Below are positions 5,458 to 55,915 of a stretch of DNA of 64,000 nt, one piece after another. Origin of the DNA: an uncultured Nitrospirales bacterium. GTDB taxonomy: Bacteria; Nitrospirota; Thermodesulfovibrionia; UBA6902; BMS3Bbin08. The stretch lies in contig CAZNPC010000001.1 in assembly GCA_964574765.1 (NCBI GenBank), forward strand, positions 28,720 through 92,719, in the 5' to 3' direction. A program made the translations under genes and the position numbers. The notes under the pieces were generated by a model, which saw nothing but the letters and a program-made list of their open reading frames with translations, searched no databases and was not told the origin of the DNA. Every line of letters begins with the position of its first letter. Position 1 is the stretch's first letter.

Positions 5458-7695
5458 TTATGGATCAGAATCTGTGACTGACCCGCCGTGACACCCTGAA
5501 ACTCCCTGCGTGGAACAGTTGTTATTACCCATGCCGCTTTTCACATAGCCTCCAGGGGTCGCGGCTTTTTTAAACGCAGTTATTTTAAGGCTGTTACCGC
5601 CGTAATTGTACGGGTCAAGGTCAGGGTTCGCAGCATTAGTCCCGTATCCGATCAGACGTGACCTTTTTGCTCCATGAGGCACAGCTATATGGCACGTAAC
5701 ACAAGTCTGGTTCTGGTGGCCACTCCCGCCGCCGCCGCCACCGCCGCCCGAGCTTACTTCATGAACATTATTGTACCAGCCGGTCTCGCTTCCACCGGGA
5801 TACAGAGGGTGACAGTTTTTACAGAACAGGCCGCCGTATGAAGTAAAACTGTCTTTATCGCTCAACTTCCAGAGCTGTGCGTCGTTTCTGAGTGGCCAGT
5901 ATTGGTTTGGGCCCTTAAGCATATATTTTGAGTTTGAGCCATGCGGTCCTCTAGGGTCAGTAGTGTCCTCACTTTCGGCGCCATGACAGTCTGAGCAATA
6001 CATTGTCTGATCACCTTCACTTTTCCATGGCGTACTCATCTGAGCATCTGTAAGCGCTTTAGGAGGATATGAACCGGGGAATGACGCTCCGGCAGTACCG
6101 GTGAGCATGTTATTCAATGTGACCCTCACAGGATGGGCTGATTTATTGCCCCTGCTGAATTCCCATGCCTGATCAGTTATGACAGCTCCTGATCCAGTAG
6201 TATAGATCGTATCGGGCGAACCTAAATTTCTGATGGCGTACGATGAATGACATTTAAAGCATATCTGGTACTCTTTATCCGCGCTGTTCATTGTTCTGTA
6301 AGAAGATAAAGCAATATCACTCCATAAAGGATCATCATTTGGATGATCAACTCCCGTAACTCCCAGAAGGGCATTTGAAACATCATTCGTCGATGCATCC
6401 GGTAACTGAGGATACCATTGATTGACTGCAGAAACATGAGTTCCCTTGAGAGTCTGATGAGGATTATGGCAGTCTACGCATTCCGCATGCTCATTGCCAA
6501 GGTCCCATCTGAGATCGTCGGCATCATACGAGACGCCAATCTGAAGAACATCAAGGTTAGTATGCCTTACAGGTGGAAGAGCATCAACAGGATGTTTGTA
6601 AAACGTCTGAAACATATCATAAATTTTCAACTCTTTTGGAACACCCACTCCGGATCCATGACACGATGTCGATGCAATACCGCTTATATAAAAACACGTG
6701 TCCTCCTCAGCCTTTCTTAATAAATAGGGAGAACCTCCCCCACTGTGAACTTTATGGCATGACGCACATCCAGCCTCAGCTACTGTATCCGGTGTACCGT
6801 CCGGAATGGGCTGTGTCTCAGCCACCGGATCGTCTATTGCCGTAGCATCAGTCTGATGAATACTTCCAACCCAGTTTGTTTTTTCATGACACCTGTCACA
6901 AATATCATTGATCGACTGTGCCAGACTGCCGCTGTTCAATACAAGGAACTTTTCGTTAGTGGTATGCGGGTCATGACATGAGGTGCACTCGACATATGAA
7001 TCGCCTGAATAATTATACAGCCTGACTTCATAGTAAGTACCGCCAATCCCCTGTACAGGAGGTTTGCTTACTCCGGATTTCAGTTCAATAGACCTGGGGC
7101 CGCCTGTATCAAAACTGATCTGTGCATTTTCATCATACTTGATCGCCACGGGATGATCATCCTGGAGATTGATCCCAAGATTGCCTGCTGACGCATCAAG
7201 TAATTCACCGGTTCCATTCTTAACTCCTGTCATACTTATTGTTGTAAAAGTACCGGTGGCGGCGTCATAAGTACTTCCACTGAGGTTATATACACTTCCT
7301 ATCGCAACTGTACCGTCATGACAGCTCAGACAGAGTCGTGACCTGTAACCAACTGCCGGGAATGTGCCCAAATCCGGTGAAACTGCATAACCAGGAGAAT
7401 CAACTCTCTGCAGATACTCACTGTCATACATCGTATAACTCGCCGTACTTAATTTATGGTTCCATAGAGGCTCAGCCGGTTGAGCATTATGAGGGGCATG
7501 GCAAAAAGAACATAATTTTGTCTCTGATGCTGCCTTGACAGTGCCGGTGCTGGTTGCTGAGAGATTATGCTTTGTAGATGCAACATCTACTTCAGTCACA
7601 TCAACTGCCCATGATAAAGACGCAATAGCGGTCATAGCAGAGATAACTATCAATTGCAAATACAGCTTATATCTTCTTATGGTCATTATTTTCAT
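5458..7695 (-). CDS. secreted multihaem c-type cytochrome (about 10 CXXCH)
   Basis: Ten CXXCH motifs (CSFCH, CLSCH, CTSCH, CDRCH, CASCH, CVDCH, CFKCH, CSDCH, CKNCH, CVTCH). N-terminal signal peptide (MKIMTIRRYKLYLQLIVISAMTAIASLSWA). Gly8 linker. Start uncertain between 7734, 7695 and 7686. Confidence 0.8.
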   Translation of the reverse strand: MKIMTIRRYKLYLQLIVISAMTAIASLSWAVDVTEVDVASTKHNLSATSTGTVKAASETKLCSFCHAPHNAQPAEPLWNHKLSTASYTMYDSEYLQRVDSPGYAVSPDLGTFPAVGYRSRLCLSCHDGTVAIGSVYNLSGSTYDAATGTFTTISMTGVKNGTGELLDASAGNLGINLQDDHPVAIKYDENAQISFDTGGPRSIELKSGVSKPPVQGIGGTYYEVRLYNYSGDSYVECTSCHDPHTTNEKFLVLNSGSLAQSINDICDRCHEKTNWVGSIHQTDATAIDDPVAETQPIPDGTPDTVAEAGCASCHKVHSGGGSPYLLRKAEEDTCFYISGIASTSCHGSGVGVPKELKIYDMFQTFYKHPVDALPPVRHTNLDVLQIGVSYDADDLRWDLGNEHAECVDCHNPHQTLKGTHVSAVNQWYPQLPDASTNDVSNALLGVTGVDHPNDDPLWSDIALSSYRTMNSADKEYQICFKCHSSYAIRNLGSPDTIYTTGSGAVITDQAWEFSRGNKSAHPVRVTLNNMLTGTAGASFPGSYPPKALTDAQMSTPWKSEGDQTMYCSDCHGAESEDTTDPRGPHGSNSKYMLKGPNQYWPLRNDAQLWKLSDKDSFTSYGGLFCKNCHPLYPGGSETGWYNNVHEVSSGGGGGGGGSGHQNQTCVTCHIAVPHGAKRSRLIGYGTNAANPDLDPYNYGGNSLKITAFKKAATPGGYVKSGMGNNNCSTQGVSGCHGGSVTDSDP

Positions 7696-52391: not shown

Positions 52392-52525
52392 AAGCATTGT
52401 TAGAAGTATGAGGCATGAGGTTAGAGGGAAAAAGCTTGAGGTTAGAGGTTTAAGGCTTTTGCCTCCCTCTTCCAACCTCATTCCTCAAACATATTTCCTT
52501 AGTCCTAAAATCTCAAAACTCAATC

Positions 52526-52915
52526 TCATTTCACCTCAAATCTCTTTCTCCCCCTTACTGCATTCATTAATCCGTTTAGTTTGCGGTCTATCTCTTCTCC
52601 TTTTATTCTTACAGTGTTAGACTCATCTTCAGAAAATAACTTTCTTCGTCGATAAATTTCATTGAGAGTTATCGTTTCGTAAAGAGAGCCTTGAGCAATA
52701 CTTAAATATTGAAGAAACTCTTTCTTGTGTTGACGACCTTTTCCTTCTGCTATGTTTTGTGGTACAGAAGTTACAGACCCTTCCATCTGAGAAACTAAAC
52801 GCATATGTTTATTGAAGGGGATTTTTTCCAGCAATCCCAAAACATAATTTGCCAACTCCATTGCCAATTGCCAAACTTCTAATTTCTCAAATGGAAATAT
52901 ATATATTCCTTTCAT
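52526..52915 (-). CDS. four-helix-bundle protein (23S rRNA intervening-sequence protein family), second copy
   Basis: FEKLEVWQLAMEL ... NIAEGKGRQHKKEF ... AQGSLYE. RBS GGAGGT supplied by the first unit of the adjacent 40-bp tandem repeat. Confidence 0.7.
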   Translation of the reverse strand: MKGIYIFPFEKLEVWQLAMELANYVLGLLEKIPFNKHMRLVSQMEGSVTSVPQNIAEGKGRQHKKEFLQYLSIAQGSLYETITLNEIYRRRKLFSEDESNTVRIKGEEIDRKLNGLMNAVRGRKRFEVK

Positions 52916-52920
52916 ACTTT

Positions 52921-53180
52921 ACCTCCAGCCTCTGCCCTCTGTCCTCTTCTGTTATGTTTTACCTCCAGCCTCTAACCTCTGTCCTCTTCTGTTATGTTTT
53001 ACCTCCAGCCTCTAACCTCTGTCCTCTTCTGTTATGTTTTACCTCCAGCCTCTGCCCTCTGTCCTCTTCTGTTATGTTTTACCTCCAGCCTCTGCCCTCT
53101 GTCCTCTTCTATTATGTTTTACCTCCAACCTCGGCCTCAACCTTGTTTTTATCCTCATCCTCCAACCTCTGTCCGCTTCT
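52921..53180. repeat. 40-bp tandem repeat, 5 near-perfect plus about 1.5 degenerate units (acctccagcctctgccctctgtcctcttctgttatgtttt)
   Basis: Units at 52921, 52961, 53001, 53041, 53081. Units 2-3 carry the tctaacctct variant. The 40-bp period is not a multiple of 3. Lies between gmd and the second 4HB gene. Confidence 0.9.
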
Positions 53181-54545: not shown

Positions 54546-54557
54546 ACAGGCTACCGC
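54546..54557 (-). promoter_or_regulatory. ops-like element GGCGGTAGCCTG (11/12 match to enterobacterial ops GGCGGTAGCGTG) in the leader between the nusG-like gene and gmd
   Basis: Reverse complement of 54546-54557 reads GGCGGTAGCCTG on the sense strand of the minus-strand operon. It lies 110 nt downstream of the NusG-paralogue stop and 190 nt upstream of the gmd start. Confidence 0.45.
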
Positions 54558-54662
54558 CATTCGGGTTATCAAAACCCGTTCTCTTGAACAAGTTCACAGT
54601 TTGCCGCGACATAATAAACTTTAGCCGTTAAAGAGACAGCTAAATTCAATCTCTGTTTATGA

Positions 54663-55154
54663 CTATGCCCTTGTCAATATCGCCCTATCAACGATAACGC
54701 TTGACTGATATTCAATAGCTGACAATAGCAGGACAATCCTTTCGCTTCCATTCACTTCCCTTTCGAATATTCCGGTGAAATCTTTAAGCGGCCCTTCAGC
54801 GATCCTGACCCTGTCTCCGCGTTCAAAATTCACAGGTTTCATAGCTATTACTCCCTCATGTTCCTGCGACTTGATAAAATCAATGATATTCTCTGAAACC
54901 GGCCATGGTTTTTCTGTATCGCCTACTACTTTTTTTATGCCTCTTGTGTACCTTATCATCCATAGATGCTTTTCAGGTTCAAACCGTGCAAATATATAAC
55001 AGGGGAATAATGACGAGACAGTCTCTCTGTATTTTCCCCTTATAAACCTCTTCTGTTGAAGCTGGGGGCTGTAAACCGTCAGTCCCGCCTCTTTCAGGCT
55101 GTTTATGACATATCCTTCTCTTTTAGGTTTTGTATAAATTGAATACCAGTTCAT
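54663..55154 (-). CDS. NusG-family paralogue (RfaH/UpxY/LoaP-like specialised transcription antiterminator)
   Basis: 163 aa. NGN-domain start MNWYSIYTKPKRE...V...L and C-terminal KOW-like GDRVRIAEGPLKDFTGIFE. Sits at the head of the long operon. Confidence 0.7.
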   Translation of the reverse strand: MNWYSIYTKPKREGYVINSLKEAGLTVYSPQLQQKRFIRGKYRETVSSLFPCYIFARFEPEKHLWMIRYTRGIKKVVGDTEKPWPVSENIIDFIKSQEHEGVIAMKPVNFERGDRVRIAEGPLKDFTGIFEREVNGSERIVLLLSAIEYQSSVIVDRAILTRA

Positions 55155-55237: not shown

Positions 55238-55804
55238 TCATTTATTTACCGGATATATACTTTTTATTAATTCCTTATCAACCCCAAGGGCTAGTAATTT
55301 TTGATACACGCTGTCCCTTCTCATATGCGTGGTGATAATTATGTAATCAAAATCAACTTCATTGACATTGCCAAAGGGCATAACAACTGTTTTGAAAAAT
55401 TTCCTGCCTTTTCCCTCATCATCCAATACGCCCAGAAAATTTAGATTACACTCCTGAAGAGACAGGTATGCAATCTCTGCAACCTCATCAGCTCCTGCAA
55501 ATACGACTCTCTTGACGCCACTATCCTGTAGTTTGATGAATAACTGCCTGAAATCCCTTCTTGCCTCACGGAATACCCTGTTATAGTTTTGCAGAAGATG
55601 GTATGTTAAACGGCTTTTTTCAGTAAAGCCCTTTGCAGTGAGAAAGTATGCATATCTTTTGGATGGAATATTCTTTATTGTTACAAAGCCCTTTGAGATA
55701 AGGTTTTTTATGTACGAATTAACAAGACCGAGTGCCAAATTCAGTCTTTTACTCAAATCTCTTTGAGATAGAGACTCGCCCCTTGAAATTTCATCAAGTA
55801 GCAT
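55238..55804 (-). CDS. winged-helix DNA-binding protein with C-terminal Rossmann-like (CoA_binding_3 / sugar-transferase N-domain-like) domain, putative locus regulator
   Basis: N-terminal wHTH (LSQRDLSKRLNLALGLVNSYIKNLISKGFV). C-terminal KRVVFAGADEVAEIAYL...NFLGVLDDEGKG...VDFDYIIITT pattern. Start set at ATG 55804. The GTG start at 55864 lies inside the conserved palindromic operator. Confidence 0.5.
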   Translation of the reverse strand: MLLDEISRGESLSQRDLSKRLNLALGLVNSYIKNLISKGFVTIKNIPSKRYAYFLTAKGFTEKSRLTYHLLQNYNRVFREARRDFRQLFIKLQDSGVKRVVFAGADEVAEIAYLSLQECNLNFLGVLDDEGKGRKFFKTVVMPFGNVNEVDFDYIIITTHMRRDSVYQKLLALGVDKELIKSIYPVNK

Positions 55805-55808
55805 TAAA

Positions 55809-55915
55809 GACTTGTAACCATCCTGATTATCAGGCTTTTTATCGTTCAGATTGTGAACGTTCACAATTTGAACATATCACATTTTAAATCAATTGTCAAG
55901 TAAAAAAAAGGAGGG
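55809..55915 (-). promoter_or_regulatory. sigma70-like promoter (TTGACA-N17-TGaTATGTT) with the 12-bp perfect palindrome GTGAACGTTCAC at about +1, upstream of the regulator/nusG-like genes; copy 2 of a duplicated module
   Basis: Minus-strand read: ccttttttttacTTGACAattgatttaaaatgTGaTATGTTcaaattGTGAACGTTCACaatctgaacgat. About 90% identical to 34449-34555 over about 107 bp. Confidence 0.55.

Follow-up and report, generated by a model that had tools for sequence, protein, structure and literature searches.

What does a block of about 107 bp do twice in one surface-glycan locus? The DNA in question, a stretch of 64,000 nucleotides from an uncultured Nitrospirales bacterium (the window), carries this block at the head of the gene for a winged-helix regulator and again in front of wzm, an ABC-2 permease gene. 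An earlier note on this DNA had seen in it a promoter followed by a palindromic operator, and had proposed a dedicated regulator/operator circuit acting on both promoters. Comparison with related genomes and metagenomes leads to a revised answer that is likely, if short of assured: promoter, tandem operator and regulator start would form one cassette, and the copy before wzm would be a deletion remnant of it.

The two copies, related by alignment and both on the minus strand, lie at 55809-55915 (copy 2) and 34449-34555 (copy 1). The repeat is real, with an identity of 86/107 (80%) rather than the ∼90% claimed at the outset, and the matches are spread very unevenly. They amount to 16/22 in the upstream T-tract together with the −35 box, 7/17 (41%) in the spacer between −35 and −10, 31/33 from the −10 through codon 7 of the regulator gene and 32/35 in codons 8-19; from the −10 to the block end the copies are 93% identical. 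In both, TTGACA is followed after 17 nucleotides (nt) by TATGTT with a preceding TG. This arrangement scores 10/12 at each copy, is the top sigma70-like match of each neighbourhood, and has the hexamers, the 16-18-nt spacing and the TG of a sigma70 extended −10 promoter. The −35 boxes lie at 55894-55899 in copy 2 and 34534-34539 in copy 1, and the extended −10 elements at 55871-55879 (TGATATGTT) and 34511-34519 (TGGTATGTT), all on the minus strand; the final three bases of the former are the first three of a half-site GTTCA. Six nucleotides past the −10, each copy continues with (G/A)TGAACGTTCA; only copy 2 has the perfect 12-mer GTGAACGTTCAC. The sequence thus agrees with the promoter described earlier (TTGACA, 17 nt, TGnTATGTT), and likewise with the placing of the palindrome ∼6 nt past the −10 and the perfect 12-mer of copy 2. 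The 64 kb contain TGAACGTTCA exactly two times (0.04 expected), and the 44-nt segment downstream of it is restricted to the same two places in the window.

The anatomy changes once the start of the regulator gene is reconsidered. The earlier note placed this start at ATG 55804, which left the palindrome in a 5′ untranslated region (UTR) and made a leader of the sequence past it. No Shine-Dalgarno sequence precedes ATG 55804, and the homologs span a longer open reading frame (ORF) of 208 amino acids (aa), which begins with GTG at 55864 (55238-55864, minus strand) and encodes a winged helix-turn-helix (wHTH; HTH_24) and a Rossmann-like C-terminal domain. Among 2,238 homologs of this ORF, the top matches, of 206-221 aa, extend across 99-100% of it. 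An alignment of 28 sequences shows a conserved N-terminus, MNV(H/Q/R)x(L/M)N......YKSL, with conservation of ≥90% at M1, N2 and V3 and no variation at N7, Y17 and S19, and residue 21, the Met start of the earlier reading, is Leu in most homologs. Because this N-terminus is kept, the start is assigned to GTG 55864. The palindrome, (G)TG-AAC-GTT-CAC, is then regulator codons 1-4, with no 5′ UTR predicted, the 56 nt at the 3′ end of copy 2 (55864-55809) encode protein, and the supposed leader is regulator codons 1-19, present as a stump in copy 1. Copy 2 as a whole is made up of promoter, tandem operator and codons 1-19. Some homologs were over-extended by gene callers, and their extra residues, WYVQxMNV, are the translation of TGGTATGTTCAAnnnATGAACGTT, which indicates that the −10 is equally placed in other species. 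The start codon lies 6 nt past TATGTT in 80/80 aligned cassettes and leaves no space for a Shine-Dalgarno sequence; from this fixed gap, the regulator mRNA is predicted to be leaderless, and probably is.

The operator unit changes as well. The conserved symmetric element is GTTCA-N5-TGAAC, a 15-mer, and TGAACGTTCA is the junction of two of them that abut. Four perfect 15-mers occur in the window, an abutting pair at each copy, against 0.08 expected, and 15-mers with one mismatch are found elsewhere in the window at chance level only. In copy 2, O1 (GTTCAAATTGTGAAC, 55859-55873) reaches from the last bases of the −10 through the predicted transcription start and the GTG (55864-55862) to Asn2, and O2 (GTTCACAATCTGAAC, 55844-55858) is regulator codons 3-7. 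The tandem operator of copy 1 (34484-34513) comprises O1 at 34499-34513 and O2 at 34484-34498 with four intact half-sites. The copies differ twice within the operator, both times in an N5 spacer, so that every half-site is intact. The half-sites of one 15-mer are 10 bp apart from centre to centre and thus share one face of the helix. The real unit is therefore not the 10/12-mer at +1 that had been proposed but tandem 15-bp inverted repeats that begin inside the −10. The pair is probably an autoregulatory operator, with repression predicted since it covers both the −10 and the transcription start. A hairpin, CCTGATAATCAGG, was also considered as a conserved element and rejected; it is lost in copy 1, which reads CCTGAAAATCAAG, and is inconsistent among homologs.

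How widely this arrangement holds was seen by comparing 80 genome loci encoding relatives of the regulator (48-66% identity), all in Nitrospirota/Thermodesulfovibrionia-type metagenome-assembled genomes except one labelled Nitrospinota and one labelled Deferribacteres. All 80 follow the pattern TTGAC(A/T), ∼17 nt, (TG)nTATGTT-CAnnnn-ATGAAC; the TATGTT hexamer is found in 57/80 aligned cassettes, the extended TG in 59/80, and the TTGAC box stands at the place equivalent to that in copy 2 in nearly all related loci. The gene start carries a perfect 15-mer in 79 loci, and the one remaining locus has Ns there; besides these, only four 15-mers are present in 769 kb. The first half of the gene-start 15-mer shares bases with the −10 (TAT-GTTCA) and its last bases form ATG-AAC with the start codon, which occupies positions 10-12 in every one of the 80 cassettes (75 ATG, 4 GTG and 1 TTG). 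Closer relatives have, like the window, a second abutting 15-mer that is codons 3-7; more distant relatives have a single 15-mer, and their protein start comes five codons later. Codon usage at these positions was examined in loci picked by amino acids alone, with codons elsewhere in the same genes as background. The anchor Asn (residue 7 equivalent) is encoded by AAC in 74/74 cases, against a background of 308 AAC to 273 AAT (p 2e-19), Val3 by GTT in 40/40 against 28% (p 8e-22) and Leu6 by xTG in 20/20 against 30% (p 6e-11). Codon 4 is CAn in 38/40 cases (the other two are CGA), and the residue it encodes is His in 19, Gln in 19 and Arg in 2. The constraint on the codons at the operator acts on the DNA, not on the protein. 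Three of the genome loci (L039, L051 and L055) have a second cassette within 2 kb. Separately, L011 carries an extra perfect 15-mer (5917-5931, within TGTTCAAAATATGAACA) 84 nt upstream of the regulator start and upstream of the −35, which could be an auxiliary operator, for example for looping.

A metagenome scan for perfect double 15-mers extends the comparison beyond the leaderless genes. Sites were oriented by an upstream TTGAC, downstream genes were classed by a family hidden Markov model (HMM), and 120 stretches were listed among the matches; ascertainment on perfect double sites makes all proportions that follow rough. Among the matches listed, 107/120 have a −35 box (TTGAC) 15-24 nt before the first GTTCA. 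Thirty-three of these 107 show a leaderless regulator start at a spacing of 20-21 nt, and 50 a family regulator after a leader of 24-642 nt, with spacings mostly of 15-16 or 23-24 nt; no regulator follows within 900 nt in 15, and the contig is too short to judge in 9. A family regulator thus follows 83/98 (85%) of the classifiable promoter-linked double 15-mers among the matches listed. The leader-bearing regulators belong to two sister subfamilies, of ∼193 and ∼205 aa, which are homologous to the window protein over their full length at 41% (E 9e-50) and 30% identity (E 1e-34), with their residue ∼7 aligning with its residue ∼18. The 193-aa subfamily has the same Pfam architecture and >2,800 relatives, one labelled Desulfobacterales. 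As far as the sequences go, the operator stays with its regulator family over at least two phyla and three promoter geometries, whether as coding sequence or as 5′ UTR. On this breadth rests the main argument that the family's own protein is the likely binder, and it likewise excludes explanations by translation initiation or by a peptide. A generic repeat was rejected as a candidate: the 81 apparent orphans were an artefact of orienting a self-complementary motif by ORF length, and with −35 orientation and the family HMM, sister-subfamily regulators come after most sites.

The cassettes that lack a regulator mostly precede, by Pfam and among the matches listed, nucleotide-sugar and glycan enzyme genes. 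These encode GFO/IDH/MocA-hexapeptide fusion enzymes (L123, L143 and also L184, with an N-terminus near-identical to that of L123), a Polysacc_synt_2 (CapD/PseB-type) enzyme (L134), a UDP-glucose/GDP-mannose dehydrogenase (L110), epimerases (L147 and L200) and a wHTH-NTP-transferase-choline-kinase fusion (L149); in L092 the gene is an inserted DDE transposase. L110 has, in order, a leaderless regulator (E 6e-61 with the family HMM), a NusG paralog, gmd, fcl, a second cassette and the dehydrogenase. The second cassette reads TTGACA-17-TATGTT-N6-ATGAACGTTCA...TGAAC and opens a leaderless ORF of 43 codons that overlaps the dehydrogenase start. By its gene order and sequence, L110 appears as an independent replica of the two-cassette layout of the window.

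The scan also brought up sites of other kinds. Arrays of three to five GTTCA-N5-TGAAC units stand without an upstream TTGAC, some of them in long ORFs or high-GC contigs (L122 ∼258-330, L159 4897-4969, L166 ∼1370-1470, L179 ∼2461-2560, L185 ∼950-1050 and L112); they do not agree with a promoter plus operator, and a related protein may use them in other settings. In the 193-aa subfamily, an upstream stretch, AAAATATCAAA(T/A)nATT(A/G)CTTGACA, is conserved (L082, L093, L096, L098, L099, L116, L117, L126, L145, L165, L181, L189 and L198). In loci of the type of L091 (1787-2636) and L129 (6901-7741; also L158 and L186), pairs of small genes lie between the operator promoter and the regulator, which starts ∼1.1 kb downstream of the promoter; judged by eye, the first gene of each pair is nucleotidyltransferase-like (...YVFGS...G....SD.D) and the pair toxin-antitoxin-like. 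In L162 (1061 to ∼700, minus strand) a leaderless-type cassette precedes an unrelated ORF of 65 codons, and an intact regulator without the MNV start follows 347 nt downstream. This looks like an insertion between cassette and gene body, the reverse of the deletion proposed for copy 1.

What, then, is copy 1? At its predicted transcription start begins a stump ORF, MNVQNLNDKKPENQDGYKSFTDEGEQDVR followed by a stop (29 codons, 34415-34504, minus strand), of which codons 1-19 are regulator-derived and the stop lies 8 nt beyond the wzm ATG at 34425. The wzm gene itself (33580-34425, minus strand) has a GGAG Shine-Dalgarno sequence at that ATG; a further candidate start, ATG 34440, corresponds by homology to the wzm start of L005, a BMS3Bbin08 locus from the closest genomic relative. 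In L005 and in L073, a wzm of the same type, starting MKTENVTVYSPD..., comes within a few nucleotides of the regulator end, and in copy 1, ∼7 nt after codon 19, comes ATGAAGGAGAACAGGATGTCC, which encodes MKENRMSDRITVYSPD..., the homologous wzm N-terminus. This gene order and the ∼7-nt junction point to a regulator-wzm unit minus the regulator body, and copy 1 is best read as promoter, both operators and a 19-codon stump, the regulator being lost from about codon 20 to its stop. A scan of the window with the family HMM finds the intact regulator and the copy 1 stump only, the latter weakly (5e-6). Start codon aside, the copies differ by five substitutions in codons 4-19, every one of them on a third codon position. 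Together with operator differences confined to N5 spacers and a −35/−10 spacer at 7/17, this pattern would be expected if two functional paralogous or allelic units had diverged under selection before the deletion. Since the locus is co-directional on the minus strand from ∼63.8 kb to ∼5.5 kb, copy 1 is predicted to be an internal promoter. A probable wzt, an ABC ATPase gene named from the Walker-A motif in its translation, lies downstream of wzm in the same direction (31730-32950, minus strand).

Directly upstream of copy 1 is a decayed stretch with gene fragments (34556-35114, minus strand). It ends where the similarity between the copies begins, which makes this point a probable recombination or rearrangement boundary. 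Within the stretch are an N-terminal GT2 fragment of 59 aa (34777-34956) and frame-shifted pieces, ...FHISPNHFYQPISGYKDFEK with its stop and DIWDQDSVLAGLNIQAEKYLKLLNTFF, which by eye resemble a truncated gene of the sugar-methyltransferase type; the fragment stops exactly at the repeat start. Short ORFs are a feature of both leaderless-type non-regulator cassettes, in the window (34415-34504, minus strand) and in L110 (7353-7484). They begin at the predicted transcription start, are 29 and 43 codons long and end 8-20 nt past the downstream start codon, and the downstream genes have their own Shine-Dalgarno sequences; with n = 2, the overlap could be translational coupling or coincidence. Two genes for a ‘23S rRNA intervening sequence protein’ (four-helix-bundle) lie on the minus strand, one at 52526-52915 between gmd and fcl, the other at 33081-33461 between wzm and wzt. 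The former is flanked by a 40-bp array of 5.5 copies (52918-53136) and a 21-bp array of 2.8 copies (52400-52458), the latter by 76-nt direct repeats that are 72% identical (32997-33072 and 33495-33570). Both genes have the look of small insertions within operons.

The second gene of the copy 2 operon encodes an RfaH-like NusG paralog (54663-55154, minus strand), which is above threshold for Pfam NusG and under the cut-off of TIGR01955, the RfaH equivalog (108.3 vs 144.5 bits). Between it and gmd, on the transcribed strand, lies an exact E. coli-type ops element, GGCGGTAGCCTG (54547-54558, minus strand), the ops consensus being GGCGGTAGnnTG. It is embedded in a conserved sequence, (C)TGAATGGCGGTAGCCTG, that comes back 68-108 nt past the paralog at the heads of Nitrospirota glycan loci (18/22 loci; 0.027 expected per 600 nt), and the ops at 54547-54558 is likely, as a prediction, to be the loading site of the paralog. 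Loci in which ops was seen are the window, L002, L015, L019-L023, L034, L054, L088, L090, L100, L102, L121 and L142. The paralog directly follows the regulator in 9/73 genome loci (tblastn), and no ops is found downstream of copy 1.

The anatomy of the sequence, its conservation, the constraint at DNA level and the link to the regulator family and to glycan genes are shown; beyond these, we infer from the sequence a regulator that binds the operator and represses, a transcription start at the start codon, a ligand and an active copy 1. A sigma70-type promoter, TTGACA-17-TGnTATGTT, would be overlaid by an operator reaching from inside the −10 to about +21. Each 15-mer would receive one winged-helix dimer and each tandem pair two, on DNA of which O1 positions 10-12 would serve as the regulator start codon and the remainder of codons 1-7 as coding sequence. 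The likely binder would be the 208-aa protein encoded at copy 2. An operator over the −10 and/or the transcription start is in the position of a repressor site (15-24 nt past the −35 in the three subfamilies), so binding there would block RNA polymerase and give autorepression, which a ligand of the C-terminal domain would relieve. Copy 2 would then drive the regulator, the RfaH-like gene, ops, gmd, fcl and onward, and copy 1, ∼7 nt from the ancestral wzm start, would put wzm and the probable wzt under the same control. The core idea of the earlier note, one regulator/operator circuit on both promoters, thus gains strong comparative support (79/80 gene starts, 83/98 promoter-linked sites, L110), but its anatomy needs correction in four respects.

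Several points weigh against this circuit, and two rival explanations draw on them. The association ties the site to the promoters of the family and would not by itself name the protein that binds, and the proportions are rough for the reason given. Thirteen of the 120 double 15-mers among the matches listed have no obvious −35, some being longer arrays. In the 193-aa subfamily, where the operator comes 15-16 nt after TTGACA, no convincing −10 is seen, and promoter geometry or sigma factor may differ there. In the structural model, the winged helix has a predicted local distance difference test (pLDDT) of 43-56, a confidence too low for any argument on dimers or DNA contacts. A different, unlinked transcription factor might therefore bind the palindromes and leave the adjacent regulator to other targets; the association by itself would not name the binder, and 13 sites stand outside the usual promoter context, some as multi-copy arrays. 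Such a factor, however, would need conservation in two phyla and a coupling to three subfamilies of differing promoter geometry, whereas 85% of the classifiable sites listed are at the family's own genes and wHTH/MarR-type regulators commonly autoregulate; we regard it as unlikely. Copy 1, for its part, could be an inert relic, for the ∼6 substitutions in its conserved part are too few to show selection. The decayed region upstream and the stump ORF both show rearrangement, and wzm might be transcribed by read-through from upstream, where the RfaH-like factor and ops could extend transcription far. Yet the −35, the 17-nt spacing, the extended −10 and four half-sites are intact in copy 1 while the spacer between the hexamers has fallen to 7/17, and other contigs, L110 among them, likewise have a second cassette of this kind before glycan genes. 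A functionless copy 1 is for these reasons a minority view, though one to be kept in mind.

The remaining rivals give the block another nature altogether. Taken literally, the first reading makes the 10/12-bp (G)TGAACGTTCA(C) an operator in the 5′ UTR, with translation from ATG 55804. Each copy does have a perfect 10-mer, and copy 2 a perfect 12-mer; both sequences are confined to these places in the window, and the 10-mer recurs in ∼35 close-group genomes as ATGAACGTTCA. However, it is coding sequence, as homologs keep MNV... and span the whole 208-aa ORF with no conserved Met21; about half of the 80 genomes lack it and yet keep GTTCA-N5-TGAAC. Its half-sites, 5 bp apart from centre to centre, would be awkward for a winged-helix dimer, and ATG 55804 has no Shine-Dalgarno sequence, all of which makes this reading quite improbable. 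Were the block to act as RNA (hairpin or riboswitch-like leader) or through a functional leader peptide, this would agree with the third-position substitutions in codons 4-19 and with the short leaderless ORF that overlaps the downstream start here and in L110. Against it, Rfam gives no match at gathering score in the whole window and chance-level matches at E up to 1 around the copies, the block folds no better than shuffles (z about −1.2) and does so differently in the two copies, and the CCTGATAATCAGG hairpin is broken in copy 1. In the sister subfamilies, moreover, 24-642 nt separate the palindromes from the gene, and the short ORFs after the palindromes show no conservation, and the third-position pattern is expected if the copies diverged as coding genes before the deletion; the probability left to an RNA or peptide is very small. 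Smaller still is that of an ops-, LoaP- or UpxY-like loading or antitermination site for the NusG paralog, suggested by the RfaH-like gene in second place of the copy 2 operon. That paralog has its own exact and conserved ops elsewhere (54547-54558; 18/22 loci) and is present after the regulator in 9/73 loci, compared with a palindrome in 79/80, which argues that the duplicated block is not its loading site; half of O1 also lies upstream of the transcript, given the predicted start.

The regulator, candidate binder of the tandem operator, can be compared with known families. HTH_24 alone is above threshold in Pfam (39.1 vs 21.9 bits, residues 20-62); MarR (PF01047, 21.2 vs 24.6 bits) and MarR_2 (PF12802, 23.7 vs 27) stay under their gathering thresholds, and C2185-like_N gives a sub-threshold match to the C-terminal domain. 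The best NCBIfam match is TIGR04176 (56.3 bits vs a cut-off of 88, E 2.7e-15, residues 20-108). The most invariant stretch of the protein, ALGLVNSYxKNL (A44-L55), lies inside the HTH_24 match, where it parallels the invariant half-site; by typical winged-helix topology it would be the recognition helix. In the AlphaFold model, residues 100-208 have pLDDT >90 and residues 1-20 <50, and a low-confidence N-terminal tail fits a largely translated operator. Foldseek relates the C-terminal domain to CAC2185 (2g6t, E 4e-4); over the full length its best match, a weak one, is the Rex-family RSP (3wg9, E 6e-3), at a template modelling (TM) score of 0.33 and a root-mean-square deviation of 15.6 Å over 211 columns, values obtained with a model that is partly of low confidence. 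A PDB sequence search gives weak FabT/MarR matches only (6jbx FabT and 8za5). The genes downstream of the regulator in 70 related loci are wzm, flippase-like genes, gmd, epimerases and dehydrogenases, and the locus of the window is alike. A tempting but doubtful extension makes the regulator a Rex-like small-molecule sensor, whose Rossmann-like domain would detect a nucleotide, nucleotide-sugar or redox cofactor and pass the signal back, by way of the operator, to surface-glycan synthesis.

On the same speculative reading, an operator that is base-for-base identical in at least two phyla would have been absorbed, in the leaderless subfamily, into the −10 and the first seven codons, and a single stretch of 30 bp would work as promoter element and repressor site, start both transcription and translation, and encode protein. 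Loss of the gene body would leave behind a portable regulated promoter with a leaderless micro-ORF ending inside the next gene, as here and in L110, and the micro-ORF might couple translation into that gene. An autoregulated winged-helix repressor with tandem palindromes next to RfaH/ops follows standard logic, and the gain is one for annotation and comparative regulation, without a new mechanism. What is new is the assignment of an operator to the family, its breadth, its packing in the −10 and seven codons, and an internal promoter born of gene deletion; a literature search on the motif, on exopolysaccharide (EPS)-associated MarR regulators and on leaderless genes in Thermodesulfovibrio, of incomplete coverage, gave nothing relevant. 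The result offers a cis-element, GTTCA-N5-TGAAC, single or tandem, together with a candidate binder for an unstudied family that has >2,000 relatives in each of two subfamilies and heads O-antigen/EPS-type loci in Nitrospirota and Desulfobacterota, mostly uncultured. The motif is usable for regulon prediction in metagenome-assembled genomes and for the correction of gene starts, since gene callers and the earlier note placed the start differently. The case is also an example of overlapping constraints within 30 bp, with measurable fixation of synonymous codons, and shows a route to a regulated internal promoter by deletion of a regulator gene.

Known systems share parts of this layout. As in RfaH/ops (JUMPstart) systems, an RfaH-like gene and an exact ops head a co-directional glycan locus of ∼50 kb; unlike there, the paralog is encoded inside its own target operon, directly upstream of ops. 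In Bacteroides, a locus-specific UpxY/UpxZ pair that includes a NusG paralog forms the first genes of a polysaccharide locus. The NusG paralog of the window matches UpxY below threshold (69.9 vs 100 bits), but its partner is a winged-helix protein with a palindromic operator instead of an UpxZ-type inhibitor, and no invertible promoter is evident. The Rex family resembles the regulator in size and in its predicted build, with an N-terminal winged helix, a Rossmann-like C-terminal domain and ∼210 aa, and Rex operators are palindromes with GTGAA/TTCAC-like half-sites over promoters. Half-site spacing and orientation differ, however, and glycan biosynthesis genes take the place of a respiration/fermentation regulon. 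No Rex-named family appears among the Pfam and NCBIfam matches at E ≤ 0.01, and the GxGxxG motif is absent from the window regulator, whose first beta-alpha turn is VVFAGADEVAEIAY (FAGADE) with one invariant Gly; Rex membership fails on the family models and on the nucleotide-binding motif. TIGR04176, the ‘MarR family EPS-associated transcriptional regulator’, has in common the link to exopolysaccharide loci, but is a single-domain family of ∼105 aa, compared with 193-221 aa and a second domain in the family of the window; we know of no operator described for it. Closest in logic are the MarR-type autorepressors (MarR, OhrR and SlyA), in which a winged-helix gene likewise heads the genes that it controls (here as a prediction) and a palindromic operator, often as two adjacent sites, lies over its own core promoter. 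The regulator of the window differs from them by an extra Rossmann-like C-terminal domain of ∼100 aa, by an operator that falls within the −10 and the seven opening codons of a gene that is probably leaderless, and by surface-glycan genes as its predicted targets.

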